Shown one piece after another: positions 1,000 to 46,324 of a DNA stretch of 64,000 nt; positions within the stretch are counted from its first letter, which is position 1; each line of letters starts with the position of its first letter. The stretch covers positions 38,788 through 102,787 of the forward strand of contig JBAZSD010000012.1 of assembly GCA_041662605.1 (NCBI GenBank). The letters are read 5' to 3'. The position numbers and the translations under genes were made by a program. The notes below the pieces were generated by a model, which made no database searches, was not told the origin of the DNA, and worked only from the letters and a program-made list of their open reading frames with translations. Source of the DNA: Desulfomonilaceae bacterium. GTDB lineage: Bacteria; Desulfobacterota; Desulfomonilia; Desulfomonilales; Desulfomonilaceae.

Positions 1000-2733
1000 T
1001 CACAGGGCTGGTTCCGTTAATAAATGCACAAAATACTGCCGGGTTCCAGGTACTTTGTTCCAACCTTCATCAAGGAGCCCAATAAATTCGGGTTGCTTTA
1101 CCACCACAGCTTTGAGGCCAATTTTCTTCAAGGAATTCAGCGCATCCTCCCTTTTCTGAGCTGTGTTTTCCAGGAAACCCTGGACATCCATGATTTCGCC
1201 AACCACCCTTACTCCAGCCATTCTTGCCCAATAAAGTTTGCAGTTGACAGGATAAAATATCGCAATTCGATCATGTTTACCCAATCCATTAGAGTTCAAA
1301 TAGTCTTTCAAAGCTGACATTTCCATAAAAGTCCCACGATGAGAAATCTTGGCGCCAGAGTCATTCAATGCTCTGTGACTTTGATCCAAGACGAAGCCAA
1401 TTATCATTCCCACCATAAAAGCGACCACCAAAACCGCTTCAAACATGACAGCGTTACATTTGCCGAAGTCTGAGAATTTGTATTCTGGAGCGAAGACGAG
1501 AGCTGTAAAACCCAGAAATAGAAATGCGGCTACGTAACGTATTTCCATTGAAACCAGGCAATATATTCCCGTACCCGCAAGGCAAAGAAGAATGAGCGTC
1601 AGTAAAACAGAAGGAGGGCGAATTCTTGGAATAGAAAATTGAGCGTTTCTGAACTGAGCGAAAAACCATATCAGCATGACCAGCGTAGGCCCCCAGATCT
1701 GGGCCACAAGGTCAAAAAAATTTCTCACGATGGCTTTGAATTGCGTCTTCAGTTTTAGAACCGGCTTTATGCCCAAGGCCCAGTACGCAGGATCACCATG
1801 TGGAAATGTTGACAGTGTTCCCTCGTCATAGACCAAGACGTCAGGGTCACTATGTACCAGTCTTGGCAAATGAACAGGGCTTCCTTCCCCAGCTACATAG
1901 TAGGTGTAATTGTAGCTTCCAACCTCACCAATTGAGAGATGGCCGGCTTTTAATGACTGGGAGATCACCACGGGTGAACTCACTATTAGCATCACACCTA
2001 CCGAGAGCAATATTCTCGGAATCGCCTTTCTCAAAGAACTGCAATATAGGCTGGCGAGAGCGAAGAAAATCGCTGAAAACGGGAAAAAGAACGTCTTGCA
2101 AATGTAACCAAGGCCTGCTGATAAACCCAAACATGCGAAATTGAAAAACGCATCGGGTGATCGCTTGATATTCAGGACGGCCACGAGGGACAATAACACA
2201 AAGGTGAATATCAGGATGTCGGGAGCTACAATCTGAATCCTTACCCATATCAAGGACGCAACGAGAAAAAGCGAAAAACAAACCGCCTTCATAACATGGG
2301 GCGGCAAAACAGTTCTCCCTCTCCCGACGTCAATTTCGTCTTTCAATCGATTAATAAACAAATTGCAGGCCGCCATCGCTGTTACAAAAAGGACGAAATT
2401 TAGAAACTTTACTACAAATAATTCGTTCAGGACTGTTGAAGGAACTAAAGACTCAAAGATGGCCAACAGAATTGAATAACCCGGGGAATATCCCAGAAGA
2501 ACAGATTCCTTCCACAATCCTTTACGAAAGGCCTCAGCCATGTCCATGTACGCAATCGCGTCGCCGTTTACATAATGTCTTGTGGTATAGGCCAAAATCC
2601 CGCCGGCCAACAGGCCAAATACCCAAAACCCTATGCGCACCCTTGCGTTCCATAGCCTGGGGTCCGCAACTATGTTGTTAAATCGCGATACGGCGTCAGC
2701 CCAACTCATTGTGGAGTCTTTCCTTTTGACCAT
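1000..2733 (-). CDS. GT-C fold (ArnT/PMT-like) integral-membrane glycosyltransferase, tandem paralogue A
   Basis: ORF 1000..2790. Many hydrophobic segments (at least 10 by eye) are followed by a roughly 110-aa soluble C-terminal domain. The loop-1 motif YVNGDAIAYMDMAEAF resembles the acidic first-loop motif of GT-C enzymes. It is a clear paralogue of 2742..4430. I set the start at Met20 (MVKRKD, 2733) to avoid a 49-nt overlap with the upstream gene; 2790 or 2709 are also possible. Confidence 0.7.
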   Translation of the reverse strand: MVKRKDSTMSWADAVSRFNNIVADPRLWNARVRIGFWVFGLLAGGILAYTTRHYVNGDAIAYMDMAEAFRKGLWKESVLLGYSPGYSILLAIFESLVPSTVLNELFVVKFLNFVLFVTAMAACNLFINRLKDEIDVGRGRTVLPPHVMKAVCFSLFLVASLIWVRIQIVAPDILIFTFVLLSLVAVLNIKRSPDAFFNFACLGLSAGLGYICKTFFFPFSAIFFALASLYCSSLRKAIPRILLSVGVMLIVSSPVVISQSLKAGHLSIGEVGSYNYTYYVAGEGSPVHLPRLVHSDPDVLVYDEGTLSTFPHGDPAYWALGIKPVLKLKTQFKAIVRNFFDLVAQIWGPTLVMLIWFFAQFRNAQFSIPRIRPPSVLLTLILLCLAGTGIYCLVSMEIRYVAAFLFLGFTALVFAPEYKFSDFGKCNAVMFEAVLVVAFMVGMIIGFVLDQSHRALNDSGAKISHRGTFMEMSALKDYLNSNGLGKHDRIAIFYPVNCKLYWARMAGVRVVGEIMDVQGFLENTAQKREDALNSLKKIGLKAVVVKQPEFIGLLDEGWNKVPGTRQYFVHLLTEPAL

Positions 2734-2741
2734 GGATAAGC

Positions 2742-4430
2742 CTAAAAAAGCATTGCCCAATATGTTTCGGTTCCCGGCACATGCAACCATCCTTCAACAG
2801 CGAGTTTTTGCCATTCTTTTCCTTGGGCTATTACTGCGCCGATTCCTTCTTTTTTCAATAGAGTCAAATACATTGAACGATCTGCTTTTGAAGAATCGAG
2901 AAACTTTTCAGCATCCTCAATTTCGCCCATAACTCTGACCCGTGCCATTCTGGCCCATTGTATTGGTGGGCTGCCGACAACCGCAACATGATTTCCTGGA
3001 ACTACTCCGCGCTCCGCCAGGAACTTACTCACCGTCATCTCATCCGAATATGCCTTTTGGTAGGACGATTTCCCATCATGAAACGACAGCCCCCTTTTGG
3101 CTTCGTCAAGCGTGTATTCCAAAACAGCTCCGAACAGGAATAATACTAGGGCGAGAATCCCCAGTTCACTTGTCCCAAGTTTCCAGAAAACCTTTTTATG
3201 TTTTCCCTGGCGCATACCGGAGATCAAGCCGGCCGATCCGACGAACAGGGACGGGCCTATATATCGGGGTTCCATGGAGATCAGAGCGAACAAGAACATC
3301 CCCGATAACGATGTCAACAGAAACAAAATTTGCAGACTCACAGGACAGGTTCGGCCAATTACAAATGATCCCAAATATATTTGAAATAGGGCCCAAATCA
3401 GAATCGCCAGCACCCAGTGTGATTGAGCAGGGATTTCCAACAGATTCTGTAAAAATAATTTGAAATGCTCATAATAATTATATTTTGGAACTATTCCTAT
3501 AGTCCAGTAAGTGACATCAAACGTAAAGGGTCTTGTGCAGATGGTACCATAATCATAGATTACGACCTTGGGTTCATTCTGGAGAATTTTCCCCTGATGG
3601 ACAGGAGCGCCTTGTCCGCCAATCAATTTGGTGTACACATGGCGTCCACCCTCTCCGTATGAAAAACCTCCTTTTTTTAAATACAATCCGGTCAATAAAG
3701 GGCCGGTTATTATAAGATAAAACAACATGGCGACTGCGATCCGCGTGATGGCTTTACGTAATGAACCAACGCAAAACCCTGTCATAAGCAAGAAAAGAGG
3801 CGCGAGAAGAAACATGAAGGCTTTGGCCATATAACCCAAGCCCAGCAAGATTCCCAGAAAAATGAACCTGGAATGGGGCGTTGGATTCTCCCGTATCCAC
3901 AGGATAATAGATAGGATCAGAAGTATAAGGCAGAATACCAACATATCCGGATTTATCAGCCTCAATCTGACGGATACCAGTGAAGTGACCAGAAAAATCG
4001 AATACAAAACGGTTTGAACCCAGATCCAGTCAAGTGGTCTATCCCCGGAATTTACAACGGCCGTATGCTCATGTTTCAAAAACCGCAGGAATATCTCGAG
4101 CGCTCCAATAGTTGCAATAAATATTAAATAATTTAATAGCTTGGCCCAAAGAATCTCGTTGAATGGATTGAGTTGGAGTAAACTTTGGAAAAGAACGAAC
4201 AGCAAACCGTACAAAGGACTGAAAGTAAAATTCGCCGCATCATACCAGTCAAATTGTCTAATCGCCTCACCGATTTCGATATAGGCTATTGCGTCATTGT
4301 TTATAAAAAAACGACTGGTATAAGCATTGATTGCAGCAAGCATGAGCGCGGCCACCCAAAAAAATATACGAACCTGAGTTTCTCTGATGTGATCATCAAT
4401 AGAGTTCCCACACTTCACTACAGCAGGCAA
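2742..4430 (-). CDS. GT-C fold (ArnT/PMT-like) integral-membrane glycosyltransferase, tandem paralogue B
   Basis: ORF 2742..4430 (562 aa). The TTG start has AAGGAG 8 nt upstream. The loop-1 motif is FINNDAIAYIEIGEAI. The C-terminal soluble domain shares WARMARVRVMGEIED and EGWxxVPGT with paralogue A. Confidence 0.7.
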   Translation of the reverse strand: MPAVVKCGNSIDDHIRETQVRIFFWVAALMLAAINAYTSRFFINNDAIAYIEIGEAIRQFDWYDAANFTFSPLYGLLFVLFQSLLQLNPFNEILWAKLLNYLIFIATIGALEIFLRFLKHEHTAVVNSGDRPLDWIWVQTVLYSIFLVTSLVSVRLRLINPDMLVFCLILLILSIILWIRENPTPHSRFIFLGILLGLGYMAKAFMFLLAPLFLLMTGFCVGSLRKAITRIAVAMLFYLIITGPLLTGLYLKKGGFSYGEGGRHVYTKLIGGQGAPVHQGKILQNEPKVVIYDYGTICTRPFTFDVTYWTIGIVPKYNYYEHFKLFLQNLLEIPAQSHWVLAILIWALFQIYLGSFVIGRTCPVSLQILFLLTSLSGMFLFALISMEPRYIGPSLFVGSAGLISGMRQGKHKKVFWKLGTSELGILALVLFLFGAVLEYTLDEAKRGLSFHDGKSSYQKAYSDEMTVSKFLAERGVVPGNHVAVVGSPPIQWARMARVRVMGEIEDAEKFLDSSKADRSMYLTLLKKEGIGAVIAQGKEWQKLAVEGWLHVPGTETYWAMLF

Positions 4431-4561: not shown

Positions 4562-4589
4562 TTGACCACCCATTGAGCTTGTGCATAAA
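4562..4589 (+). promoter_or_regulatory. Candidate sigma70 promoter for the GAF-protein gene
   Basis: TTGACC (4562-4567), 16-nt spacer, CATAAA (4584-4589), about 60 nt upstream of ATG 4652. This is a pattern match only. Confidence 0.3.
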
Positions 4590-4651
4590 TGCGAACCACT
4601 AAGAATAAACATGAGACCCCTAAGAAAAAGGAAATCCGGAGGAGGGCGAGG

Positions 4652-7012
4652 ATGAAAGAACAACAACAATTTCCATTCAAAACTGTCTTGAGTCTTAAGC
4701 CTCTGATCGATTTCTGGAACAGGACGATCACGTCTTCGGACGCGTCATGGGGGCTTTCTCAGGACGAACTCAATTCAAGGCTGGAGGAGGCTCAAGAACT
4801 GCTGGAGCCGATCACGGATTTCTCAGCCCTCGAACGCCATCAACCCGTAATCAAGACACTTATGTCCGCCGTGTTCCCTAGAGCATTCTGGGAGGCGCAA
4901 GTCGCTGGCGCGTTTATACCATTCCAGTTAAGGCCTTTTTTCGTTTCGCCTTTACTGAAGAAAAAGTTTCTTAACAATGATGGGTCGATAAAGGGCAGAC
5001 CGTTTCCTGATGAAGAGGCTTACAACAGGGACAGGATTTTGAAAGCCTACCTGATGGTTTTGAAAAAATTTTACGATATTGATTCTGATCTTGATTTACC
5101 TTTGATCAGAATAGTCCCCGATCCGGATACAGGTTTGGACAGGTATTACAAAATTATCACGCAGACAAAATTTGTTGAGCCGCACAGTCCAACTCCCGTT
5201 CGAGATTTGACAGAGGACGAGAGATCCAAAATCAGGGAGAACATTTTGGATCTTGAATCTCTGGGACGTATTATCCAGATTGAGAATTTCGAATTTCACG
5301 GATTTGTTGTTGTATACGCTCTCGAGATTACTACTAGCTCGGTCATATCGGCACTGGAAAGCGATCTCATTGACAGCGGCTCTATAGCCTGCGGTTCAGG
5401 TCTAGCCCGTTTGGAAAATCGTTTGCGGACACTTTTGGGGGTGCCTGACCTTAGGGCGGACCTCATGGCTTTTGACGGCGATGAGGCGATAATCCTCAAA
5501 GACAGAGTTTCGGGAGAGGAGAGCCACTTTTTTTCCTTGTCAAAGCGTTTATCCCTGAAAGATTTCTCTGGCTCAAAATTGGATGAAGTAATCCAGGAAG
5601 GCAAGATAGTCACAATTTCGGATCTTGAAACTGCCGCGTCAGAACAAATATCGGAATCCAAATTTGTCGCCGGCGACACCCGGTCCTGGTTGGCCGCTCC
5701 GCTCACATACTGCGGCCGGAATATAGGTGTTCTTAACCTTACATCTCCTCACCCTGCTGAATTTGGAATTTCCCAATCACTTTTGGTAAAGGAAATTTTA
5801 CCTATTTTTTCTGTGGCTCTTAAGAGATCTTTGGATGAATTTAATTCGACCATAGAGAAAACCATCAAGGAAAAATGCACAGCCATTCATCCGTCAGTGG
5901 AATGGCGGTTCCGGAAAGCCGCAATCCAAAGTCTGGAAAGCTTTGAAGATGGCTCTGTTGGAGATTTCACTCCAGTAGTGTTCGAGAATGTTCATGTTTT
6001 GTACGCCGCTGCGGATATCAAAGGGTCGTCCGAAATCAGGAATCGAAGCATTCAGGCAGACCTGAGTGAACAACTTCGGTTAGCCTTGGAAATAATTTCG
6101 ACGGCGCTTTCAAAAAAATCATTCCCAATCCTGGAAGAAGTGAGTCACCAAATTCTAGGGAGATTGAAAATAATATCCCAAGGAGTTACGACGGCCGATG
6201 AACAACCGATCGTGAACCTTGTGCAGATTGAAATAGAACCTCTTTTTCCGTTTTTAAGAACATTAGGTTCGGATTTGGCCAATCTGATTGACAAGTACCA
6301 GAGTCGACTGGATCCCGTTACGGCAACCATTTTCCAGGAACGTCGGGAGTTTCAGGAAAGTGTCGCTTTGTTGAACAGGAGGCTAGCATTATACCTCCAT
6401 GGTGAACAGAACTTGGCTCAATCTATTTTCCCCCATTTTTTTGACAAACATCAGACCGATGGTGTTGATTATGTAGTTTATCTTGGGGAGTCAATGATCG
6501 AGAAAATGAAGTTCAGTGATGTTTATGTCAAAAATCTTCGTTTGTGGCAGTTGATAGTGTGTTGTGGGATGGCCTGGATCACTACTGACGTTCGGTCTGA
6601 ACTGAAGGTTCCACTCGATGTTACTCATCTGATACTCGTAACCTATACCCCAATTTCAATAAGATTTCGTTTTGATGAGAAAAGGTTCGATGTTGACGGA
6701 GCATATAACATTGGCCATGAGATTATTCGATCCAGAATAGACAAAGCGACCGTCAAAATAAACAATGACCGCCTTACTCAGCCCGATAGAATCGCTATAG
6801 TTTATTCTAGGCCCGAAGAGGCCATGGAGATGAGGAGACACATTTCTTATCTGCAGGATAACGATTTCCTTTTGGATGACCTGGAATATGTCGAACTGAA
6901 TGATCTCCCCGGCGTCCAGGGACTTAGAGCCATGAGAGTCGGCGTGAACGTGCAGTCATCGAAGATTGCCGAAAGAGTAGCTTCAACGCTGGGGCATGAA
7001 GTGACTATTTAG
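4652..7012 (+). CDS. Large GAF-domain protein with an uncharacterised C-terminal half
   Basis: ORF 4589..7012. Start chosen at ATG 4652 because GGAGG lies 6-10 nt upstream. The central region looks like a GAF domain (SWLAAPLTYCGRNIGVLNLTSPHPAEF). I see no HisKA, GGDEF, EAL, HD or Walker motifs in the remaining roughly 400 aa. Confidence 0.55.
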   Translation: MKEQQQFPFKTVLSLKPLIDFWNRTITSSDASWGLSQDELNSRLEEAQELLEPITDFSALERHQPVIKTLMSAVFPRAFWEAQVAGAFIPFQLRPFFVSPLLKKKFLNNDGSIKGRPFPDEEAYNRDRILKAYLMVLKKFYDIDSDLDLPLIRIVPDPDTGLDRYYKIITQTKFVEPHSPTPVRDLTEDERSKIRENILDLESLGRIIQIENFEFHGFVVVYALEITTSSVISALESDLIDSGSIACGSGLARLENRLRTLLGVPDLRADLMAFDGDEAIILKDRVSGEESHFFSLSKRLSLKDFSGSKLDEVIQEGKIVTISDLETAASEQISESKFVAGDTRSWLAAPLTYCGRNIGVLNLTSPHPAEFGISQSLLVKEILPIFSVALKRSLDEFNSTIEKTIKEKCTAIHPSVEWRFRKAAIQSLESFEDGSVGDFTPVVFENVHVLYAAADIKGSSEIRNRSIQADLSEQLRLALEIISTALSKKSFPILEEVSHQILGRLKIISQGVTTADEQPIVNLVQIEIEPLFPFLRTLGSDLANLIDKYQSRLDPVTATIFQERREFQESVALLNRRLALYLHGEQNLAQSIFPHFFDKHQTDGVDYVVYLGESMIEKMKFSDVYVKNLRLWQLIVCCGMAWITTDVRSELKVPLDVTHLILVTYTPISIRFRFDEKRFDVDGAYNIGHEIIRSRIDKATVKINNDRLTQPDRIAIVYSRPEEAMEMRRHISYLQDNDFLLDDLEYVELNDLPGVQGLRAMRVGVNVQSSKIAERVASTLGHEVTI

Positions 7013-12250: not shown

Positions 12251-13447
12251 TCATAACGAGTAACCAACCTTCTGGTTTGTCGTATTATAGCCGATAGTTA
12301 TCTTTGTAACTTCTAAAATTCTATTCGCAATAGTTTTATGCGCAACTACATTGGGATGTTTGTCAATAACTTTCACCGGTTTGCCTCCCCAATGGTAGTA
12401 GCTCCGCGAATATGCTTCGACGGAATCGATTTCCAATCTTTGGATCATGGCAAGTTGCGCATTGACTACTTGTAGATTGGTTTTACAAAAAAAATTGGGG
12501 ATGTTCGGAATCCGGTTGTCCATCCCCAAAACTACTACAATCATTTCTGATCCAACCAGCCTGCAGATCGATGCGATTTCACCGTATACATATTGCTCGA
12601 TTCGGTTGACATCTTTTATTGGCTCCGGGACTAGGCCGGTCAACTCTTTTAGTCTGACCAGGCTAGCATTCCATCTGTCACTGAATAACTGAGGGAATTC
12701 CCGGGAGAAGCTGAAATTAAGGAAGCCACTAAAGGAGTCGTCAGATAGATCAATTTTTCTTGAGCCATGATCAAATATTTGGCTTTTGAAATCGGGTTTG
12801 TGGATTTTTATAATGCCTGGAGTGGCGTCTATGAAATATGGATGAGGCAGGAGGCCTTGGACAGTTGGTCCATATCGGTGAGTAGATCGCTCCGCCAGCC
12901 ATGGAGAATACTGGGCCAGAACAATTTTCGGCTTGAATTGTGGAATAACCTTTCTCGCGAGGATGAGCATTTCAGCCAACCCACCGCTACATTTTCCGGC
13001 ATTAAGGGCCGTCAGTTTGAGTTTGTCCGAAACCAGATTGCAGAAGGTGTTTTCAGCCTCGACTCCAAAACCGAATGTGAAGCTGCATCCCAAAGCTAGT
13101 AGGTAATCTTGTTTTTGAGTCGGGTTTTCCTTGCCCGAAGCGATACATGGAGAGCGAAAACCCCGAGAATCATAGCACACACAGGTCCTGGATCCATTCG
13201 GAAGAACCACAGCCCCGCGAGCCCCTGGAATAGGAACATAACCAAGCACGTCATCAGGCTTGTGAAGTCTCCCTTCCCAAAGCGCTACCCCTCTTTTCAA
13301 CGTTACCCAATCTGTAAAGGAACGGAACATAATGAGGCAAGAAAAGGCCAGGAAACAAGCCCCCAAGGCTATTCCTGACCACAGGAACAGGTGCGCCATT
13401 TTTTGTCTTGGCATTTTATCCCCCCCAAAAATTACATCTGATTTCAA
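12251..13447 (-). CDS. Membrane-anchored SGNH-like protein (divergent; block I GCS instead of GDS)
   Basis: It has an N-terminal TM helix (LFLWSGIALGACFLAFSCLIMF). LLALGCSFTFGFG and NAGKCSGG align by eye with blocks I and II of the partial protein at 1..901. The TTG start overlaps the gyrA stop (TTGA); internal Met starts are possible. Confidence 0.45.
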   Translation of the reverse strand: MKSDVIFGGDKMPRQKMAHLFLWSGIALGACFLAFSCLIMFRSFTDWVTLKRGVALWEGRLHKPDDVLGYVPIPGARGAVVLPNGSRTCVCYDSRGFRSPCIASGKENPTQKQDYLLALGCSFTFGFGVEAENTFCNLVSDKLKLTALNAGKCSGGLAEMLILARKVIPQFKPKIVLAQYSPWLAERSTHRYGPTVQGLLPHPYFIDATPGIIKIHKPDFKSQIFDHGSRKIDLSDDSFSGFLNFSFSREFPQLFSDRWNASLVRLKELTGLVPEPIKDVNRIEQYVYGEIASICRLVGSEMIVVVLGMDNRIPNIPNFFCKTNLQVVNAQLAMIQRLEIDSVEAYSRSYYHWGGKPVKVIDKHPNVVAHKTIANRILEVTKITIGYNTTNQKVGYSL

Positions 13448-14781
13448 GGATTGTCAGGGCTTAAAACTTCTTCATCAAAATCCTTTTCCTCTTCATCAGA
13501 CGCTTCTACCCGCGCAAGGTCCAGAACGTGTTCGCCAGGATCCATCCGCACCAATGTTCGACCCTGAGTGATTCTGCCAATAACCGATATCTCTTCCATT
13601 CTTAAACGAATTATTTTTGCCCCGGAAGTAAGTATCAGAATGTGGTCTGAGTCATCTACAACCCTGACGGCGACGACATCCCCACTCTTTTCCGTAGTCC
13701 GTATCGTGATTACTCCCTGTCCGCCTCTGTTGATCGGAGGATATTCGCTCAAGGAAGTTCTCTTGCCAAGGCCATTCTGAGTAATAGTTAACAATGTCCC
13801 GGAATCCCCCGATACGACTTCCATTGCTATCACCGCGTCATTTGAGCGCATTCTTATGCCGGTAACGCCTCTGGCTTGGCGACCCATTGGTCTGGTCTGA
13901 CTTTCATGAAATCTGATTGCCTTTCCCTTGCGAGTTACCAGGAGAATGTGATTCTCACCGCTGGTGAGATTAACATCAATTAGTTGATCATCCTGATCAA
14001 TAGTCAGAGCAATGACACCTGTCGATCTTGGTCTTGAAAACTCGGCGATTGAGGTTTTCTTGATTTTGCCCTTAGCTGAAACCATGGTCACGAAGCCCTC
14101 CTGGCTCAGTTCGGGAATGGACAGAACCTTTTTGATGGTCTCTCCCTCGTCCAATTTCAAGAGATTCACAATAGCGCGGCCTCGGCTGTATGGTCCTTCT
14201 TCGGGTAACTGGAAAACTCTTAGCCAATGGACTCGCCCTCTATTCGAGAAACAAAGGAGCACATCATGAGATGAAGCGTACAGTATTTGATTTACAACAT
14301 CCTCACTTGCAATTTTACCGCCTATTCTCCCCTTGCCCCCTGGCTTCTGTGATTTATAAACATTTGCCAGGACTCGTTTAACATACCCTTTGCTCGAAAA
14401 TGTCACTACCACATCTTCTCTAGGAATCAAGTCTTCATCCAAAACATCGGAATCAAGATCTTCGAGTATCTCCGTTCGCCGGTCGTCCCCAAATTGATCT
14501 TTGACCTCACTAAGTTCGGATACGACAACCTCGAGTATTTTCTCCTCAGAGGCGAGCAGGGCTTCCAAATCCGATATTTTGGCCAGAATATCTCGAAGCT
14601 CCTGCAAAATCTTGTCGCGTTCCAGCCCCGTGAGCCGTTGGAGCCTCATATCGAGAATCGCTTGCGCCTGAATTTGGGTAAGCTCGAAATTTACTATGAG
14701 AGCGTCTCTGGCAGTCTGAGGATCCGGAGATTCTCTGATTGTCCTTATCACGGCGTCCAGGTTGTCGAGCGCTATTTTAAG
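13444..14781 (-). CDS. gyrA: DNA gyrase subunit A, C-terminal part (reading frame continues directly from the in-frame TGA at 14782-14784)
   Basis: ORF track 13444..14751 (GTG-initiated). The frame is open from 14781 (LKIALDNLDAVIRTIRESPDP...). It carries the typical GyrA tower and beta-pinwheel C-terminal domain and an acidic tail. The frame is the same as 14782..15963. Confidence 0.9.
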   Translation of the reverse strand, partial: LKIALDNLDAVIRTIRESPDPQTARDALIVNFELTQIQAQAILDMRLQRLTGLERDKILQELRDILAKISDLEALLASEEKILEVVVSELSEVKDQFGDDRRTEILEDLDSDVLDEDLIPREDVVVTFSSKGYVKRVLANVYKSQKPGGKGRIGGKIASEDVVNQILYASSHDVLLCFSNRGRVHWLRVFQLPEEGPYSRGRAIVNLLKLDEGETIKKVLSIPELSQEGFVTMVSAKGKIKKTSIAEFSRPRSTGVIALTIDQDDQLIDVNLTSGENHILLVTRKGKAIRFHESQTRPMGRQARGVTGIRMRSNDAVIAMEVVSGDSGTLLTITQNGLGKRTSLSEYPPINRGGQGVITIRTTEKSGDVVAVRVVDDSDHILILTSGAKIIRLRMEEISVIGRITQGRTLVRMDPGEHVLDLARVEASDEEEKDFDEEVLSPDNP

Positions 14782-15963
14782 TCATTCAAGTATGTGCGCT
14801 CGTTCTCTTGCCCTGGCCAACTCGAATCTGGTTCTCCTGATTACGACTTCGCGGCGAAAATCAACGAAACCACTTAAAATTTCTTTAAGGTTCATAGTGC
14901 GCGGACGACGGTTATCCACGCAAAGAAGCTGTATTCCAAAATTGGTCTGTAGCTGTGTATGCTTGAATAGCTGGTTTAAAATCAATTCTGGGTTCTCATC
15001 CCTTTTTAATTCAAAGACAACTCTCATTCCATGGCGGTCCGATTCATCCCGAATGTCCCTAATACCCGGGATCTTCTTGTCCTTGACCAAATCTGCTACA
15101 TTTTCGACCATTCGCGCCTTGTTCACTGTGTAGGGGATTTCAGTGACCGCTATTCTCTGATAGCCTTTACCGGCGTCTTCAATCTGAGTCCTGGCTCGCA
15201 TCCTGACGGAGCCTCTTCCGGTGTGGTAGGCGTCAATTATTCCTTTATTGCCAATTATGAATCCATACGTGGGGAAATCAGGGCCAGGCAACAACCTCAT
15301 CAATTCGCGAATAGAGGCTTCAGGATTCTGGATGAGATGAATTGTCGCGTCTATTGTTTCTCTCAAATTGTGAGGAGGTATATTGGTAGCCATCCCAACA
15401 GCTATACCCTGGGAGCCGTTGATCAACAAAGCGGGAAATCTGGCAGGGAGGACGACAGGCTCCTGTTGGGTGTTATCGTAATTGGGTATGAAATTGACCG
15501 TATCCTTGTCCAGATCTTCAAGAATAGCCTGACACACTTTCGCCATTCTAACTTCAGTGTAACGCATGGCCGCCGGCGCATCCCCATCTACGCTACCAAA
15601 GTTACCTTGTCCATCAATAAGCGGATACCGCATTGAAAAAGGCTGCGCCATTCTGACGATCGAATCATATACGGCAGTGTCACCATGTGGGTGATATTGG
15701 CCGATCACGTCACCGACAGCCCGCGCCGCTTTTCTGTGCGGACGGTTCCATATATTTCCGGCCCTGTGCATGGCGTACAGGATCCTTCGGTGAACAGGTT
15801 TCAAACCATCGCGCAAATCAGGTAACGCGCGGCCCACGATCACGCTCATCGCGTAATCTAAATATGACTTTTGAATTTCTTCCTCAATACCAACTGTTAC
15901 AATCTCGGCAGATTTACCCAATGCGGATTCCTTTTCAGTAAATATACAAGAATCGAAGACCAA
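14782..15963 (-). CDS. gyrA: DNA gyrase subunit A, N-terminal part, ending at an in-frame TGA (14782-14784)
   Basis: Motifs [40 protein letters not shown] and AAMRYTE (catalytic Tyr). It ends ...[13 protein letters not shown]. The true start is probably TTG 15921 (AAGGA upstream) rather than 15963. Confidence 0.9.
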
Positions 15964-16252
15964 GTTTCTGACCTGGTAATATTAACACAACGATAAATTA
16001 TCGACAAAGATCGACTCAAAATCTTCGTAAGTTATTCTCATATTTTCAGTCTAACGAATCAAATATTCCAATGCGAAAGTCGGCTTGTTTATGAGTCTGA
16101 TTTTATATCGAGGCGCCTCTTAAACTATAACAATATATGGGTCATAACAACTTAATATTGCCGAATTTATAATTCTTATGTTGAATCTGATTGACATAAT
16201 CTTACAAAATATGAAATAATTAAACGGTTTATTACATTTTGGAGGTTCTGGG

Positions 16253-16609
16253 ATGGATGGAATCTTGAAAATGGGCGTTTGCCTAACGCTTATAGTTGTT
16301 CTTTCATGCCCGGCCATTGTCTTGGCCAAAAATGCTGGTCAATCGACCATCGTAAACATGACTAACCAGGTTTACGATGGGGGAGCCAAAGCGCTCGATA
16401 AGACAGAGGGAATTCTCAACCAATGTCTAAAATCGACTTTTAGCTTGTTCAACCCCTGCTTGGACGTTGTCAAGATGTGTACTGACGTGGCTTTGAAGCC
16501 TTTGAACTATCCGTTTGATTATGTTGAAGGAAAGCTTTACAAGCCAAAAGTCGTAAACAAGCGGGTAGAGATTCCGGCCCCTCAAAAACCGGTGATGCCC
16601 AAGCAGTAG
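16253..16609 (+). CDS. Small secreted protein, unknown function
   Basis: ATG with GGAGG upstream. Signal peptide (MGVCLTLIVVLSCPAIVLA). 118 aa. Confidence 0.5.
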   Translation: MDGILKMGVCLTLIVVLSCPAIVLAKNAGQSTIVNMTNQVYDGGAKALDKTEGILNQCLKSTFSLFNPCLDVVKMCTDVALKPLNYPFDYVEGKLYKPKVVNKRVEIPAPQKPVMPKQ

Positions 16610-16700
16610 AAATTTCAGTCAAGAGGGGTTTGAGGGGATAGGCGCTTAACTATCGGATTGTTCGATAAGTCCGAGGTAAGCGCCAACACGGAGGGTGTTT

Positions 16701-17294
16701 ATGGCAAGAGTTGCCGTTCCCATAATCGGAACGCTTTTGTTGGTTCTATTCCCAATAGCGCTTAGGGCCGAAGTAAAAATTCAGGCCAACGGAATTGCAA
16801 TTTGTTCCGTGATCATCAATGAGATGACCGAGGGGAAAATTCCCCTGAAGCAGTCGAGAGATATAGCTACCGCTATTGCTGGAGCTGGAAATAGACACTT
16901 TGGAAAAGTTACTTGTGGAGACATGTGGCTTTACATGGCAATGGTTTACGTTGAAAGCGGATTTCGCAACAATATTATAAACCACCAAAATTGCAGAGGA
17001 ATGTTTCAGATACATGCCCCGTCTTGGGCCTCAAAGTTCGGCGTCAAATATAGGGATCTGTTGAATCTGGAAACAAACGCAGATTGCGGTGTTCAGGTTC
17101 TTAAGTATTATCTCGGCCTTTACAGAGATTTAGGACAAGCTTTAAGCGCATACAACAGTGATCATCCAGCGGCAGCCAGAGGTTACGCTCGAATGGTGAT
17201 GTCTGTCAGAAACAAGATAAAAAAGAGATATGCGCAGCTTTACCATACTTATAAAGATGCCCCAATGCTGGTTGCGAGGACCCCGGACAGATAA
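16701..17294 (+). CDS. Lytic transglycosylase (SLT domain) protein
   Basis: Signal peptide. SLT catalytic region YVESGFRNN...RGMFQI...AYN. ATG 16701 is preceded by GGAGGG. Confidence 0.7.
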   Translation: MARVAVPIIGTLLLVLFPIALRAEVKIQANGIAICSVIINEMTEGKIPLKQSRDIATAIAGAGNRHFGKVTCGDMWLYMAMVYVESGFRNNIINHQNCRGMFQIHAPSWASKFGVKYRDLLNLETNADCGVQVLKYYLGLYRDLGQALSAYNSDHPAAARGYARMVMSVRNKIKKRYAQLYHTYKDAPMLVARTPDR

Positions 17295-17366
17295 TTAATT
17301 CCTCGTTTTGTCCCTTCAGAATTAAAAAATTCCAAACGGAGAATGGGGTATCGGTCTGAGATGTAT

Positions 17367-17615
17367 TTACCTGGGAGGACCGTACAAGAACGGTGTGGCT
17401 ATTGAGCTAAGAAAATCGAATGGATTTAGTGGCGAAGGATTATGATCCATAGGCACGTATGGGTCATGTCCCATTGGGTAACACGCGGACACTGGGCCAT
17501 TCGGCGGAGCTAAGTATTGAGGCAGACAACTCACACACCCACCGAGCCATAACATACTAAACAATATCAAAGTGATTAATAAATATTTTATAAATTGCTT
17601 CATATTGTTACGCAT
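17367..17615 (-). CDS. Small lipoprotein, unknown function
   Basis: Signal peptide with lipobox LGGC. The mature part is proline-rich. 82 aa. Confidence 0.45.
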   Translation of the reverse strand: MRNNMKQFIKYLLITLILFSMLWLGGCVSCLPQYLAPPNGPVSACYPMGHDPYVPMDHNPSPLNPFDFLSSIATPFLYGPPR

Positions 17616-17740
17616 TCAAAGAGTTAACTTATTTTAACCCTTAAAACTGTTTTGATCAAGCTAAAAATTTAGTTATATATAACTCCTTGAATTATAGGGT
17701 TTATTAATTCTCAGAAGAATAGGGCTAGCGCCATTAGTCA

Positions 17741-18784
17741 TTACTGATCCCTTGGCTTAAAAACACGAGATCCCTCGGGTAATATGACGAATTCCCCATT
17801 AGAATTAACTATTAGACACGAAATATTATTCATTTTATCAAGTAAAGAGCTTCCCTGCTTGGGGCCAAGAACAAATATTCCTGCGGACAGGCCTTCAGCC
17901 CGTACGCCATCAGGCGCCACCACGGAGACAGACTCCACTGCGGACGATGGGAACCCGGTTTTGGGGTCCAGAATATGGTGATACCGTATGCCGTCCTTTT
18001 CGAAGTATCTTTCATAATCACCCGATGTAAAGACTGATCCTGATTCGATGTCGACTGTCGCTGCGATGGCTGACGGGTCTCTCGGATCCTGGATACCAAT
18101 CTTCCATGGGACACCAGGTCCTTTACCTCCAAAAGCCGTAATATCGCCTCCAGCATTTATTAGAGCTGATTTGATTCCCGTTGATTTTATGATTTGTTCG
18201 GCCTGATTCAGTGCGTAGCCCTTTGCTATTCCTCCGAGATCCAAGGCCATTCCTTGTTCAGGAAGATAAATTTCGGATCTTTCAGGAAATATTTGGACCT
18301 TTTTCCAGCCCACTTTATTTAACGCCTGATTTATTTCTTCGGGGCTTGGTAGCCTGGGTCCTTCAGGGCCGCTAAAGTTCCAGAGTTTTGATATAACCCC
18401 GATAGTTGGATCAAAGGCCCCGTTGGTAAGTTGTGATATCTCCAGACTTCTTTGAATGAGGGCTATGAGTTCGGGATCCACCTTAACAGGCTCTAATCCT
18501 GATTTCTCGTTTATCTCATTAAGTTGAGACTGTTTATGAAAAGATGTTAAATCCTCAATTCGCTTGATTTCGTCTAGGGCCGAATTTGCCACCTTTGAAA
18601 GCTGGTCGGAAGGGCCCACCACCGTGACCTCAACGAGGGTTCCCATGAGTATCCGGCCGATTTTCAAGGTCGAATTGGAATTCCCCATGGAGCAGGAGTT
18701 CAAACTCCATGAGGTCAAAAGCAAGAAAGCCACCGTCAGCAAGGGGGTTCTACGATTTAAATCTACAAAATTGGGGAAAGCCAT
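17741..18784 (-). CDS. apbE: FAD:protein FMN transferase (ApbE family lipoprotein)
   Basis: Lipobox LNSCS, plus ApbE motifs GGIAKGYA and HHILDPKTG. Confidence 0.85.
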   Translation of the reverse strand: MAFPNFVDLNRRTPLLTVAFLLLTSWSLNSCSMGNSNSTLKIGRILMGTLVEVTVVGPSDQLSKVANSALDEIKRIEDLTSFHKQSQLNEINEKSGLEPVKVDPELIALIQRSLEISQLTNGAFDPTIGVISKLWNFSGPEGPRLPSPEEINQALNKVGWKKVQIFPERSEIYLPEQGMALDLGGIAKGYALNQAEQIIKSTGIKSALINAGGDITAFGGKGPGVPWKIGIQDPRDPSAIAATVDIESGSVFTSGDYERYFEKDGIRYHHILDPKTGFPSSAVESVSVVAPDGVRAEGLSAGIFVLGPKQGSSLLDKMNNISCLIVNSNGEFVILPEGSRVFKPRDQ

Positions 18785-19683
18785 CTGAATCTCGAAACCA
18801 AAATCTTGATTGGAACTACCATGGAGAAAAATGGGAACATGTACATGGCTGCTAGCGTTGGCGCCAAGGGTCCGAAGAAATGTGATGAAAAAACGATAAC
18901 CAGCACATTGTTCATGATTGCAAAACTTACTCCGGCGCCTACACGATTGGAAGAACTCTCTTTAGGAACAAGCAAGAACCCGGTCAGATAATATATTGCG
19001 GAAAGTCCGTAAGCCACTCCAAGGCTCAACAGGAGAACGCTAGGGCTCTGAAAGAAAAAATAAGAGTATTTGGAGAACACCCCCAGGTTGATAATCGCAA
19101 ATATAACGAGCGAAATAGGAAAATGAAACGGAAGTATTTTTTCCAAGGTCTCCATGAAAAACCGTCGAGCCACAATTACGGCCAACATGGGGACAAATAT
19201 GATAGTGGCCAGTAATCTGATCATCAATTCCAAAGGGATATTGACTTCCTGACCAGCGAGCGCTTTAAGGAGAACCGGCAAAGTGAAAGGAGCCAGCAAT
19301 GAGGTGATAATGACCATTCTCAACACAGGCGCCAACTCAGTATCCAACAAGTTAGCTATAAAAGGGGCCACGACCCCTGTTGAAATTCCAGATAACAAGA
19401 GAACAGGGATGGCGAAATCCGGAACTACCAACAAAGCGACCCAATACAAAACAGCCGGCAGAATCGCCAACTTGAACAGTACAAGGATAAGCGTCGTCTT
19501 GAGGGATCTTGGGGATGTATCCAGCAGTGAGTCGAAGTTGATTCTCAAAAAACTGAGAAACATCAGTAACATCATGAAATACAATGGATAAGGCTGTAGC
19601 GGAGAACACAATTCCGGTTCAAATATGGCAATCGCAGCGGAAGCGAAAATTACAACCAGAAGAATGAAGTCATTCATCCTCAT
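18763..19683 (-). CDS. Bile-acid:Na+ symporter (BASS/SBF-like) family membrane transporter
   Basis: 306 aa with about 9-10 TM segments and a BASS-like pattern (SGISTGVVAPFIANLL). It overlaps the apbE start by 22 nt. Confidence 0.5.
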   Translation of the reverse strand: MRMNDFILLVVIFASAAIAIFEPELCSPLQPYPLYFMMLLMFLSFLRINFDSLLDTSPRSLKTTLILVLFKLAILPAVLYWVALLVVPDFAIPVLLLSGISTGVVAPFIANLLDTELAPVLRMVIITSLLAPFTLPVLLKALAGQEVNIPLELMIRLLATIIFVPMLAVIVARRFFMETLEKILPFHFPISLVIFAIINLGVFSKYSYFFFQSPSVLLLSLGVAYGLSAIYYLTGFLLVPKESSSNRVGAGVSFAIMNNVLVIVFSSHFFGPLAPTLAAMYMFPFFSMVVPIKILVSRFRWLSPIL

Positions 19684-19771
19684 GGCGCTTTCACCGCGCC
19701 TATTTTTTCGATGAAATTTTTGACTGACTTGAATCCGTCGCGGCCGACCCCAAAAATGGGCTGACTTCTTT

Positions 19772-20182
19772 TCAAGATTTTGCCCATAGCATCAGTCCGG
19801 TCGCCTCGTCATATTCTCTTCTCATTATGTGTCCGGGTATCTCGATTCCGCAGAGTTCGGAAGCGAAAATTATTGAGCCTGGTCCGAGATGGCCTCCAAA
19901 ACACTGAAATTTTTGATCTGCAACCAGAATGTGGGCATGAGCGAATATCTCGCCATCCTTTTCTGATATGTTACCGATGCAGGAAACAATTTCTAAGTCT
20001 TCATTGAATTCCTTAAAACTATACTTTTGTTCACCCGGATTGTAGAAACCTATAACAGCCTTCGTTAAGGCTCCAATCAGATTGAAAGATCCACTGCGAA
20101 TTGATCTGGATCGAAACTCATCGGTGATGGTGTCCAGCAAATCTAGACCCTTAGGGAGACGCGCCAAAAACTGTAATCCCAT
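19772..20182 (-). CDS. PPC (DUF296) domain protein
   Basis: ORF 19772..20356. Start set at ATG 20182, which has AAGGAG 7 nt upstream and removes the overlap with the divergent gene. The sequence is DUF296-like (EIVSCIGNISEKDGEIFAHAHILVAD...GGHL). Confidence 0.65.
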   Translation of the reverse strand: MGLQFLARLPKGLDLLDTITDEFRSRSIRSGSFNLIGALTKAVIGFYNPGEQKYSFKEFNEDLEIVSCIGNISEKDGEIFAHAHILVADQKFQCFGGHLGPGSIIFASELCGIEIPGHIMRREYDEATGLMLWAKS

Positions 20183-35964: not shown

Positions 35965-38900
35965 ATGTCAGTCACATGTGATCAAGCTTCATTAATTTTC
36001 CTGTTTCAAGCTAATAATATTACCTCCTCACTAATAAATACAGCCAAAGACCTAAATGTTCGAGTGGCTTTTGATCTTGGATCTGAAAATCCATCTTTGT
36101 ATCAATCTTTGCTACTAGTAGCGGACGCGTCGCAAGATGTAGTGGATCTTAAGATCTCCCCCTGTGTACTCTCAGACCCAAAATTGGTAACCACGCTAAA
36201 TGAAATAGATGTCCGAAGAATTTGGCTGGACATGGAACCTGTTGGCGCTTTGGAGGACAAAAATTCAATATTTAAACAAATTGCAGAGCTAGCGTCTGAT
36301 TTTGAGATTATCCCAATATTGAGTGATTTAGGCTCCATCCGGAAAATTATAAAAGACCATCCAGACATAAGGAACATTGCCATAAAGGGAAATGAAGCAG
36401 CCGGTTTTGCTGGGTCAGAGACCTTGCTCACGCTTTTTTCAACTGTTTCTTCGCTACTCAAGCAATCAAACTCTCCTGCGAATATTTTCATATGGGGCGG
36501 GATCTCCTTTCCCGAGGTGGCGGCGGCGTTTCTGGCCTGTGGAGCAAAGGGCATAGTGTTTGAGAGTCTCCATTGGCTGACCGACATGGTCAACCTGGAC
36601 GAAGATTTCAAGAAGCGCATTGAGAACATTCGCCCGGATCACACTGAGTTGATAGGGGCAAATTTAGACGTTTATCTCCGAGTCTTCAATAAGGGTAATT
36701 CTACGTCCGTAAAAGATTTGAAAGATTTCGCCGGATCCTTATGTGGCGCCGAAATAAGAGACGAACAAAGAATTTCTTTTATCAGGCATGTTTTGAAAAA
36801 TTTGACGCATCCCCTTAAAAGCAAGTTTGGGAAAGATGAGTTGATCCCTCTAGGTACTGAAGCGACGTTCGCTGCATCTTTTGTTCGTCGCTACGGTTTT
36901 TTCACTGAACAGGCTATTGAGAAATTTAGTAAAGACATTGAAAAGTGTTTGAGCACGGCCCCCGAACGAGCCGTGTCTTTCGTAAAGAGCCCAACTGCTG
37001 AGAAGATGGGGACAGAATATCCATTTATTCAGGGGGCCATGTCCTGGATTACTGATTCAATGGAATTTGCGTCAGGCATTTTGGAGTCAGGAGCGTTACC
37101 AACGCTGGCGCTTGGGCTTATGGACTCCAACACATTGAACTCAAAATTCTCTGATTTGCAAAACCACTTGGGCGATCGGCCCTATGCCGTGAACATAATC
37201 ACCCTGTCCGAGAATCCATTCCGTGACGAGCAAGTTGAATGGGTAAAGTCTAAAAAACCTCGATTTGTAGTCATAGCTGCTGGAGAGCCATCTAACGCCA
37301 GGGGTTTCATTTCAGATGGTATTGAGGCTATATACATCGCGCCGAATGAGGAACTGCTCAGATTGGCGCTCGAAAACGGTATAAAGTTTGTGGTCCTTGA
37401 GGGTCATGAATCGGGGGGGCATGTCGGCGTTCATAGTACTGTGACTCTTGTCCAGGCGGCTCTGGATCTTAAGAGCCGTCGCCCTGAACTCTTTAAAGAT
37501 TCCACGATAATTTTCGCAGGTGGCTTTTTTAACCGTTTGACATCGGTCATTGCATCTATCATGGGCGCCGACGGCCTCCAAATGGGGACCGTATATCTGG
37601 CTTCAAAAGAAATTGTTGAAACAGGAGCACTAAGCCGGATTTACCAAAAGAGAATTCTTGAAGCTCAGCCCGGCTCGACTATAGTTACCGGCGAAAGCGC
37701 TGGACTACGTGTACGCTCCCTGAAGACACCAAAGATAGAAGCGATTTGTTCACTCGAACGCGATTTTGCCACCGGTTCCGAGAACGAAAGTTCCTTTCGA
37801 AGGAAAATAGAGACATTGAGCGCGGGCAGTCTTTTCATTGCTGCTAAAGGCATGAATAAGCCCGATGGCGAAAAGTTGGCTGAATCAGAAATAATGAAGC
37901 AGGGCCAATTCATGAGTGGCGCATGCGCGGGGGGAATCAACGTCCAGCTTTCTCTGCGCCAAATCCATGAGAATTTGGCATTTGGCGCGCCAAATGATGT
38001 TTTGCCCGCTCGGGTAAGCCTCAGACCTGACTACTCCGAACCATTGTCCAATAAACAGAGTTCTTTTTCCTTTTCCAGCCACCAGACTTCCACCACGCGT
38101 GGTTCCAACACAGGGACCAATGGATTCGAAAGGATAGCGATAACCGGAATGAGTGTTGTCAACTCACTCGGCGCTAGTCCTCTGGAAATAATACAGGCAA
38201 GCCTGGCTCTAAAAAGCGGTGTTACCCCGGTTCCGTCCACAAAGTGGAATCATGAGGCCTTTTTCAGCTCAAAACCTAGGGCTTCTGAAAAAACCTATTG
38301 CCGATATGGGGCTTTTCAAAACCTTGAAGTTTCCAGAAAGGAATTAGGCATTCCGCCTCAAGATTTCAGAACTATGGCTGAAGCCACAAAAATTACATTG
38401 TGGTTAGCCAAAAACGCAATATTGGAATCAAACATCCTGGAGTCGAACATCCCCAGAGAACGCATTGGCGTTCTAATATCTCAGAATTCAGGCGAAGCTG
38501 CGTCAACATTGGAGCAGATGATAATCAGAGGTTGCTCTGAAAAAATATTATCCGACATCAAGAGAGCGCTCAATCTTACCCCTGACCAGGAGGCTCTTGT
38601 ATCCGAAGAGATTAAGCAGAAAAGAATGGGTGTCGATGACACCACCCTTCTCGGTCGGCTAAACTGTTCAGCCGGTGGATTCATATGCAACAAATATGGA
38701 TTTATGGGCCCCAGTTTCTCTGTTTCAGCGGCTTGCGCAACGTCTTTGGTGGCTCTCTACAGCGCTTACCAAATGATTAGAAACGGAATCATAGACGCTG
38801 CTGTGGTAGGTGGGGGTGAGGAGCTTTTGACTCCAATGCATTTCCTGGAGTTTTCAGCTTTGGGGGCTTTGGCAGGTCTGTCGGGCGCCAACAAATCTCC

Positions 38901-41900
38901 TGCCGAGGCTAGTAGGCCCTTTGACGCGGACCGTGATGGGATGGTCCTTGGCGAAGGCGGAGCGATGATAGTCATCGAACGCGAATCAATCGCACTCAAA
39001 CGAGGCGCCAATATTTCGGCCTTTATAACTTCCATGGGAGCCAGCAATAACAATCTTGGCATGGTGGAGTCTTCCAGAGCCACTCAGGAAATCGCTATCA
39101 GAGCCTCTTTCAAGGACTGCTCATATGGCCCGGAATCCGTGGACTTGATAGAGTGCCACGCCACCAGCACTAAACAGGGCGATGTAGAAGAAGTCCAGGG
39201 GCTGAAATCAATATTCAATTCCGGTCGTCCGCCGGTTCTCACCTCTTTCAAGTCTCAAATCGGTCACACTTTGGGAGCTTCTGGACTTAACAGCCTGATC
39301 CGGGGTGTTATGGCCATGCGCTCGAAGGTTTTTTCTCCAACAATCAATTATTGCAAACCGGACCCCGAGATTGGAATGGAATCAGCGGGATTCAGAGTAA
39401 TGTCTGAACCTTCTGATTGGCCGCTCAGCAATGGCAATCCTCGGCGATTCCAGGTTAACGCTTTTGGCTTTGGCGGATCGAACTACGTGGTTCAGATCGA
39501 AGAATCCCAAAATCAAGAAGCGGTAAGATTTTCTCCATCTCCAGAAAAACTCAAGATTTCCGTTGATAAGCGTCCAATAGTCAAGGCTCCGGATGGAATA
39601 CATTTCTTTCGAAGTTCTATAGCTGGAGAAACATACCGGATAGCTGTAATCGCTGAATCTGAAGCCGCTGCTGTTGAGATGATACAAAACGAAGATTTGA
39701 TCTCCGGCGAAGGAGCGATCGGTGGTAAACGACTGAAAGTTTTGGCGAGGCAGGGCATTCATATCGGATCATCCAACGCGCCAATACCCCGCATGGCTTT
39801 TGTTTTCCCCGGTCAGGGATCACATTACGCCGGAATGGGGCATGAGCTTTACAATAACTTCCCGGTGATTCGGGAATGGATGAACAGAGCCGCTGACGTA
39901 GCGGAATTCGATATCCTTAAACTTCTATTTTACGATAAAGAAGAAGATTTACAAAAAACAAGGTGGCAGCAGCCGGCGCTATTTACTCTTGAATACGCCT
40001 TGGTGCAACACTTGATTTCACTGGGGGCTAGGGCCACGGCTTTGGCCGGACATAGTCTCGGAGAACTCACAGCCCTGTGCCTTGCCGGTGTTTACTCTTT
40101 TGAGGACGGCTTTCGCATTGTGAACAAGCGTGCAGTTTGCATGGACAAAGCCTGCAAAATGAACGTGGACCCGGGAATCATGGTGGCCTGTGACGCTCCT
40201 CTGGACGTGGTAGATCAAATCCTGTCCGAAGCAAAAAACGTTTACATAACGAACATAAATTCACCTAGGCAGATTGTAATCGGAGGGGCGACCGAAGAGT
40301 CCAAGGAAATCTCAGCTAGACTGAAAGAAATGGGATATAGGAGCACCGTCCTAAGGGTAAGCATGGCGTTTCATTCGCCGATCATGAGGTGTATCCACGA
40401 TGAGCTGAGAGAATTTATTGATACCGTAGATTTCCACCCCCCCCAAATTCCTGTTATTTCCAACACCACGATGAAACCTTTTCCGGACGATGCTGAAGAG
40501 ATAAAGGGAATTGTGATGGCCCATCTTGAGTCTCCGGTTCATTGGCTCCAGAATGCCAAGACGTTGTGGAACGAATTTGACGTGAGACTTTTTGTTGAAG
40601 TCGGGCCGCGAGAAGTTTTGTCTAACCTTATACAGGACACTATTGAAGAAGCCCCATGTATTCAGACCTGTCTGCCTTCCGCCGAGTCTTTAATGTGCAA
40701 GACAGCGGTAGCTCAACTGTATTCCAAGGGAATTCTGCCAATTGATAATGCGAGAGATTTGACCGACGATCTTTATCGGGGCTCCCAATTTGAAGCGGTT
40801 GAAAACCATAAGGAACGGCCGGTGGAGCGTACAGTTAATTCCAGGGTTTCAATACAAACTGATTTGAAAGAAATTATACAAAAAGAAATCAACTCATTCG
40901 TAATCGAAACATTTGGCAGATTTATCAGGCCTTCTATCTTACGGCAGATTCGTACAATTAAGGACCCAAAATTCAGCGAAGCCGATCTGGACAGGATACT
41001 TGGAAATTCATTCGGCGCGTTGTCCACCCCATCTCTTATTGAGACGCCGTACAATCAAACCCAGCTTACAATCGCTCAACAGGAACCAATGAGATCCGCT
41101 GCTCCTGAACCGGAATCCTCGGCTCCGGATACCACGGAGACAATTATTCGCATAATAATGGAGGTAACTGGTTATGACAGGGATGAGATTGAACCTCACA
41201 TGGACCTTAGGGAAGATCTCGCAATAAGATCCAGCAGGCTTCCTGTAATTATGGATGCGGTGGAAAGTCGATTCAAAATCAAGATCGAACTTGAGGACTT
41301 TATGGACGTGAGAACAATTAAGGACCTGTCGGATCGTCTCGACATGGTTGTATCAAGAAAAGCTCCGTCCATCGCAAAAAATGCGTCAGTCGATTCTGAA
41401 ATCGAGGAAACAGAGATTCTGGAAACTCCCAAGGAAATTTTGAAAAGACTTACTTTTTCGGAAGTTCCCCTGACTGGCGATTCTTTTCAGCCGCTGGAAC
41501 TTAGTCCGATGGATTCGGTTATTGTTGTTGGCCCTTCTTCGTCCGAAGAATTCTGCAGGAATGTGGGAGACGTTTTTCGCAGGGATTACGGGGTCCGGAT
41601 AGATCACTTTTTCTTTGGTTTGAGTCAATCGGATAAAGACGAAAACATCGTTGACTTGCTATCGGATTCCGGTCTGATGGAAATAAAAGACACAATAAGA
41701 GATTCCGAGTCTCCGGCGGGAATAGTCTTTGTCACTGATGAGGCTTTTGAGGCGAGATTTTCCGAAACAGCGACGTTGACGAACTTTTTGACGGGATTTT
41801 TCAGCTTGTTGCAGCAATTTATTCAGAAACCAAGCAAAAAGATGTCTGTATACTTGCAATCTGGGGGTGACTCGCCGAGCGCTTTCATGGAAGCCGTTAC

Positions 41901-43860: not shown

Positions 43861-43861
43861 A

Positions 43862-44614
43862 ATGAGGGGCGCCGAGCGGAAATTGGATGAAAACCGTTCA
43901 GGAGAATTTTGCTCTTTGCGGCAGGACGTCTTTTACACTAGTGTCAGGCATAAGTCTGTTAACCCCGGGAGCGAGTCTCGTGGAGAAATCAAGCGGCTCG
44001 TTGCCCGTAGTCTGATGGCGTTCGCTATTGAGAGAGGTATGCTAAGAGCGAATTCTTATGAATTGGATGATCGAATTCTGGACATTCAGAAAGACAGTCT
44101 AGGTAGACCGACTCTTAAAGGTTTCAAAAATGAGAATTGGTCGATTTCATTTTCATATGGGCGCGAGAAATTATGGGGGGCCATATGCTACGGGAATTTA
44201 AATTGTGGAATCGACGTCGCGTATCCCGAAGAATTCACAAAGTCCTACCCTTTTCATAGAGCGTTCAGTGACTCGGAATTGTATCTTCTGTCGTCTTCAC
44301 TGGATCTTAATGCTATCGAGTCCGCTGCGTTTGCATGGTCGGCCAAAGAGTCAGTAGTCAAAGCGCTAGGAGTCGGGTTTCATTTCTGTGATCCACTTGA
44401 TCTGGAAGTGACTGATGTTCAATCATTCGGGCGGTATTTTGAGGCTAGGCTAGGTTTAACGGTCAAACCCAAATTAAAGGCCACTCTAAATGGCTTCACG
44501 GTCTTTAAGACCATGGTACGCCATGATGAAAACGGATTTCTATCCTTAAGCGCGACCGCTATTTCGAATAATCAAGTCCATTCTGAGGGCTTGGAGCGTT
44601 CCATCGTGATGTAG
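43862..44614 (+). CDS. 4'-phosphopantetheinyl transferase (Sfp/PfaE type)
   Basis: The ATG lies 1 nt after the megasynthase TGA. Motifs CGIDVAYPEEF and FAWSAKESVVKALG, i.e. (W/F)(S/C)xKE(S/A)xxK. Confidence 0.8.
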   Translation: MRGAERKLDENRSGEFCSLRQDVFYTSVRHKSVNPGSESRGEIKRLVARSLMAFAIERGMLRANSYELDDRILDIQKDSLGRPTLKGFKNENWSISFSYGREKLWGAICYGNLNCGIDVAYPEEFTKSYPFHRAFSDSELYLLSSSLDLNAIESAAFAWSAKESVVKALGVGFHFCDPLDLEVTDVQSFGRYFEARLGLTVKPKLKATLNGFTVFKTMVRHDENGFLSLSATAISNNQVHSEGLERSIVM

Positions 44615-44626
44615 GCTAACAGTTTA

Positions 44627-46183: not shown

Positions 46184-46324
46184 ATCAAAGTCAATCTTCT
46201 TGATTGTCATTCCATTTCTCTCAAACCATGATGTTTTTTTCAGAAATTTCTTGCCTTTTTTGTTCATGCTGTTTTAATGTATTTTCAGATTAGTGATTTT
46301 TTTTAACTACTTGGGAGGGTGTGT

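Follow-up and report, generated by a model that had tools for sequence, protein, structure and literature searches.

Internal stop codons that turn bacterial genes into apparent pseudogenes are often artefacts, and their appearance depends on the assembler and on the coverage (Cooley and Wright, 2024, BMC Genomics, PMC11017572). We have analyzed one such stop codon in gyrA, the gene for DNA gyrase subunit A, on a 64-kb stretch of contig JBAZSD010000012.1 from a groundwater member of the Desulfomonilaceae (Desulfobacterota); this whole stretch of DNA is called the window here. The gyrA reading frame of the window is interrupted by an in-frame TGA at codon 394. The results showed that the stop is private to one assembly, that the glycine expected at its position is invariant, and that no recoding signals accompany it. 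We consider that the stop is not a real biological feature and that it is most likely an error or an unsupported base in that one assembly, with a probability of roughly 0.87.

When compared with the assembly-error pseudogenes of Cooley and Wright (2024), the locus is similar in that a lone internal stop lies in a conserved essential gene and is absent from a near-identical independent assembly. It differs from them in that the stop is the sole discrepancy in 64 kb, and the assembly otherwise looks accurate. E. coli GyrA (PDB 6rks) is matched over its full length, including both domains, the AAMRYTE motif and a GyrA-box-like motif, and the only departure is the TGA at codon 394, where E. coli has Ala382 and the 127 close homologues have Gly. 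Programmed UGA recoding (selenocysteine, read-through, genetic code 4 or 25) likewise combines an in-frame UGA with conserved sequence before and after it, but in the present case the UGA occurs in no relative, is not followed by a downstream structure, and is the main terminator of the window.

The gyrA gene of the window

Translation of the reverse complement of 13444..15963 gave one GyrA frame with a lone internal stop at residue 394, in the context AHILE*LKIAL (the asterisk marks the stop). A sequence-only reading of the window had described two minus-strand open reading frames (ORFs) in the same frame, 14782..15963 and 13444..14751, split by a single TGA with no frameshift or indel and with conservation on both sides. 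The translation confirmed these coordinates and the frame, and the TGA was the only lesion, the frame continuing past it. The features referred to below are as follows.

13444..15963, minus strand: gyrA (DNA gyrase subunit A); 839 codons when counted from TTG 15963 and 825 from TTG 15921; one codon damaged, the rest intact
14782..14784, minus strand: in-frame TGA, codon 394; base 14784 is A on the plus strand and T on the coding strand
14782..15963, minus strand: N-terminal ORF fragment of 393 aa; identical to JGI/IMG gene call P0121
13444..14751, minus strand: C-terminal ORF fragment of 435 aa, start GTG 14751; identical to JGI/IMG gene call P0123

A six-frame scan of the whole window was made for long segments (at least 120 aa each) that share a frame and are split by a lone TGA, and the gyrA pair was the only such case.

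With glycine in place of the stop, the window GyrA was 100% identical to P0001, a protein of 839 aa with the domains DNA_topoisoIV (PF00521) and DNA_gyraseA_C (PF03989) on record. Both families are also recorded for all 120 listed homologues of P0001. The nearest named relatives, 74–92% identical, are entered as 'DNA gyrase subunit A' and come from metagenome-assembled genomes (MAGs) of Desulfomonilaceae, Desulfomonile, Syntrophaceae and 'Deltaproteobacteria'. E. coli GyrA structures (e.g. PDB 6rks) could be aligned end to end with the window GyrA (E = 7e-272), and the catalytic-tyrosine motif AAMRYTE was identical to that of E. coli, where the tyrosine is Y122. The GyrA-box-like sequence QKPGGKG of the window protein aligned with QRRGGKG of E. 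coli; this box separates gyrase from ParC. Y135, G542 and G543 were invariant columns in the alignment of 127 sequences. Judged by these alignments, the window gene is a canonical gyrA and a full member of the GyrA family, with all tested defining features present.

The start of gyrA is ambiguous. TTG 15963, which gives 839 aa, was used in the Logan and JGI calls, and TTG 15921, which gives 825 aa, in the ENA/NCBI calls on near-identical contigs. TTG 15921 has the sequence AAGGA (15933–15929) 7 nt upstream and fits the usual GyrA N-terminus better than TTG 15963 does.

The stop codon is confined to one assembly

The 1 kb around the site was present in 20 public metagenome runs, mostly from groundwater. 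The contigs of one groundwater run, X1 (word depth approximately 19x), were compared with the window in four pieces. The Logan contigs of X1 covered window positions 1–64000, and the sole difference was at base 14784, where X1 carries C instead of the A of the window; on the coding strand this corresponds to TGA in the window vs GGA (Gly) in X1. A base-by-base comparison of the X1 loci L001, L002 and L004 gave the same lone mismatch. The X1 contig that carries gyrA is 28,980 bp long and is, judging partly from coordinates, the Logan contig of SRR18595301. The gene is called there as one 839-aa protein (P0001) with the sequence AHILEGLKIAL.

The same base was found wherever it could be read: C was present at 14784 in 11 of the 11 runs that had a contig over the site (X1–X10 and X13), which belong to several studies and whose samples were taken from groundwater, wastewater, soil and landfill. 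The contigs of X2–X10 and X13 carried strain-level single-nucleotide polymorphisms elsewhere in gyrA, yet all had C at 14784. When a 61-base query centred on the site was used, so that every 31-mer spanned the TGA base, no indexed run contained the query. X1 contained a fraction of 0.97 of the words sampled from the 1-kb query; since this fraction is not 1, it is consistent with only the site-spanning words being absent. Outside base 14784, the gyrA of the window equals the intact allele at every base, and therefore shows no sign of decay. A decaying pseudogene was rejected as an explanation, as there were no further lesions relative to the intact allele.

One X4 contig seems to skip 4383 bases of the window (from 15698 to 20082), with only 21 letters on one side of the junction. 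Its depth was 23.5, vs approximately 3 for the organism of the window, and it looks like a conserved gyrA stretch of another organism rather than a deletion.

The public record contains the split gene as well. Among the members of the P0001 cluster at 90% identity are the JGI/IMG entries P0121 (393 aa) and P0123 (435 aa), both of which lie on one contig of 118,613 bp and match the two gyrA ORFs of the window exactly. The NCBI copy of this contig gives only a 213-aa piece, P0124. The remaining full-length proteins listed for the cluster, which are 825 or 839 aa long and each come from a contig of their own, were intact, and the split occurred only on the 118,613-bp contig. The intactness was established for P0001 from its own sequence, and for P0122 and P0125–P0130 from the Gly at the invariant alignment column. 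Exact-product look-ups of the two ORFs and of P0121, and further exact-sequence look-ups, returned 'not on record', which is contradicted by the cluster listing, so these look-ups were uninformative. The possibility that the window had been altered after deposition was rejected because the split gene calls were already in JGI/IMG. Since they were, the TGA would have entered at the assembly or consensus step of that record, or else be a minority allele.

Glycine 394 is invariant among relatives

Relatives of gyrA were gathered by a protein-guided search. All 56 related genomic gyrA loci encoded Gly at the site, by GGC (24 loci), GGT (17), GGA (10) or GGG (5), and TGA was found in none of them. 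The use of all four GGN codons looks like the outcome of selection for glycine combined with synonymous drift. At the protein level, G394 was an invariant column in 127 of 127 aligned homologues. The stop codon aligned with Ala382 of E. coli (AHILEAL), in agreement with the sequence-only reading, which had expected Gly or Ala at this position. The relatives encode GyrA as one polypeptide of 820–870 aa, and none is split.

Over 13 kb, the 746-kb ENA/NCBI contig L003 shares 99.8% identity with the window. Its gyrA carries GGA at the site and is called as an intact gene of 825 aa. Exact scans with a 32-mer carrying N at the site gave no matches in the genome and metagenome contig collections, which evidently do not include the source contig or identical strains.

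One Desulfomonilaceae MAG, isolate JTS-AC162, has two different gyrA loci (L023 and L034), with identities to the query of 76% and 78%, which lie on separate contigs. Either the bin is mixed or the second copy is real.

UGA acts as a terminator in the window

We examined stop-codon usage in the window, the RNA around the UGA, and the sequence before the putative downstream start. The results showed that TGA is the commonest terminator of the window, ending 21 of the 43 long non-overlapping ORFs when the gyrA fragment is counted. These ORFs include the gene for a 2631-aa megasynthase and a radical-SAM gene, whose stops at 43858–43860 and 46181–46183 are both TGA, as the sequence-only reading had pointed out. 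Its remark on the context of the stop was correct as to the fourth base, which is C. Poole, Brown and Tate (1995) are reported to have found that termination in E. coli is weakest at UGA-C; a literature search on this context gave only eukaryotic and viral papers. In the window itself, TGA-C terminates three other genes.

A 76-nt stretch that begins in the codons immediately before the UGA and extends approximately 65 nt beyond it had a folding energy of −15.1 kcal/mol, vs a mean of −13.6 kcal/mol for shuffled sequences (z = −0.53), and 60 of the 200 shuffles folded as well. A hairpin resembling a selenocysteine insertion sequence (SECIS) was not found 3' of the UGA in this comparison. A selenocysteine signal or a read-through stimulator was rejected, as the fold was no better than that of shuffled sequences and UGA was present in 0 of the 56 loci. 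No tRNA gene, and hence no suppressor tRNA, was detected in the 64-kb window by ARAGORN.

In genetic code 25, UGA encodes Gly. Although this code is tempting for a stop at an invariant Gly, it was rejected on the stop-codon usage of the window. The gyrA genes of the nearest relatives, from Desulfomonilaceae MAGs, read through under the standard code. There was no Shine–Dalgarno-like motif in the 16 bases before GTG 14751 (CGACAACCTGGACGCC-GTG), and re-initiation at this codon was rejected on that ground. A naturally split gene was rejected as well, since the downstream part has no ribosome-binding motif of its own and the split is not common to the relatives.

Origin of the stop codon

The organism most probably has an ordinary, intact gyrA that encodes a single polypeptide, with GGA for Gly394. 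The change from C to A on the plus strand (G to T on the coding strand), found only in the one public assembly that is the source of the window, would most likely be due to a wrong base that became fixed during assembly or consensus calling; we infer this step of entry. By an alternative route, the assembler may have chosen a low-frequency read variant. In both cases, the TGA does not reflect how the cell makes GyrA. The sequence-only reading had put forward an assembly or consensus error, or noise, as one of its explanations, had noted that GGA to TGA takes one substitution, and had named GGA at this site as the mark of an assembly error. GGA was indeed read in independently assembled contigs, namely those of 11 of 11 runs, among them X1, which differs from the window at 14784 only, and that of the 99.8% identical relative, which supports this explanation.

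Some observations speak against an error of this kind. At a depth of approximately 19x, short-read assemblies rarely contain wrong single-base substitutions. All the runs were examined as Logan assembled contigs, which drop rare variants, and a minority TGA allele could therefore go unseen. In addition, X1 is only probably the source sample, judging from its identity with the window over 64 kb.

The stop might instead be a real but rare gyrA G394* allele of no functional meaning, i.e. a recent, deleterious and transient mutation, carried by a minority of the cells or of the chromosome copies in a polyploid cell, whose path was taken by the assembler. We regard this as unlikely, although it is the strongest of the alternatives. 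A public assembly does contain the TGA, as the gene calls P0121 and P0123 of the 118,613-bp contig show, assemblers do not normally settle on a base that no read supports, and contig-level data cannot reveal minority alleles. On the other hand, GGA was found at approximately 19x in an independently made assembly that apparently represents the same population, the words spanning the TGA were in no indexed run, and a distinct lineage is contradicted by the lack of a second difference from the intact allele in 64 kb. Since bacteria cannot do without gyrA, nonsense alleles of the gene should remain very rare. That the TGA is a genuine allele at an appreciable frequency, sustained by read-through of UGA-C or by heterozygosity among chromosome copies, seems very unlikely.

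The explanations in which the stop would have a function, namely read-through, a split gyrase and an altered code, are also very unlikely even when taken jointly. For a tolerated nonsense codon, UGA-C would have to be read through by near-cognate tRNA-Trp or by a suppressor tRNA to an extent that yields enough full-length GyrA. This fits with the continuation of the frame and of the conservation past the stop, and with the leakiness of UGA-C in E. coli that Poole et al. (1995) are reported to have found. Nevertheless, the stop was found in no relative and in no other dataset and has therefore not been selected for; the true stops of the window are most often TGA, and three other genes end at TGA-C; and the downstream RNA folds no better than shuffled sequences, with no tRNA gene in the window. 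Basal read-through amounts to about a percent or less and would place Trp or Cys at the invariant Gly. Read-through, the second explanation of the sequence-only reading, is thus highly improbable, given that no relative carries the stop, that no structure follows it and that TGA-C is an ordinary terminator in the window.

The third one, a gyrase A made as two polypeptides (residues 1–393 and a second chain starting at GTG 14751) that assemble afterwards, has in its favour that ORFs of 393 and 435 aa exist and that both were called by gene callers. It was not borne out: the motif expected before GTG 14751 was lacking, no relative has the stop or a split gene, all checked full-length members of the cluster were intact, and ten conserved residues (G-LKIALDNLDA) would be missing from the two chains. 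The break would also fall at the equivalent of E. coli Ala382, which in the GyrA59 structure reportedly belongs to a long helix that leads to the dimer interface of the C-gate and does not mark a domain boundary. We find such a split gyrase barely conceivable. The same applies to UGA as a sense codon, either for Gly as in code 25 or for selenocysteine, even though the stop falls exactly at an invariant Gly. Twenty other long ORFs of the window, including the one of 2631 aa, end at TGA, and gyrA contains the lone in-frame TGA that joins two long segments. There is no SECIS-like hairpin in the folded stretch, the relatives have GGN and never TGA, and the Desulfomonilaceae use the standard code. 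An error or an unsupported base in one assembly thus remains the favoured origin of the stop.

The main value of this finding lies in quality control, as a one-base error or an unsupported minority base was sufficient to break an essential single-copy marker into two fragments. The stop can distort annotation (two genes in JGI, and only the 213-aa piece in the NCBI copy), and it can also affect phylogenies based on gyrA and the scoring of completeness. It is not evidence that a gene has been lost, that the gyrase is split or that the stop codon is recoded. If, instead, a substantial TGA allele did exist, it would be an example from nature of an essential gene that withstands a nonsense codon, which would be of modest interest.

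Other features of the window

The gene directly downstream of gyrA (12251–13447, minus strand; 387–398 aa) encodes a protein with an N-terminal hydrophobic segment and has no Pfam match. The same gene adjoins gyrA in the 99.8% identical relative.

ORFs 1000–2790 (minus strand, 596 aa), 2742–4430 (minus strand, 562 aa) and 4589–7012 (plus strand, 807 aa) gave no Pfam match at E <= 1e-5. The two minus-strand ORFs lie in different frames and share 49 nt, and the third has only a faint GAF match on record.

The region 35965–48138 (plus strand) is occupied by a compact biosynthetic cluster. Its 2631-aa megasynthase is of the type I polyketide synthase kind or resembles a polyunsaturated fatty acid synthase, with NMO/enoyl-reductase, KS, AT, ACP, KR and DH domains. 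The cluster further contains genes for a 4'-phosphopantetheinyl transferase (43862–44614), a B12-binding radical SAM enzyme (44627–46183) and a MATE efflux protein (46720–48138).

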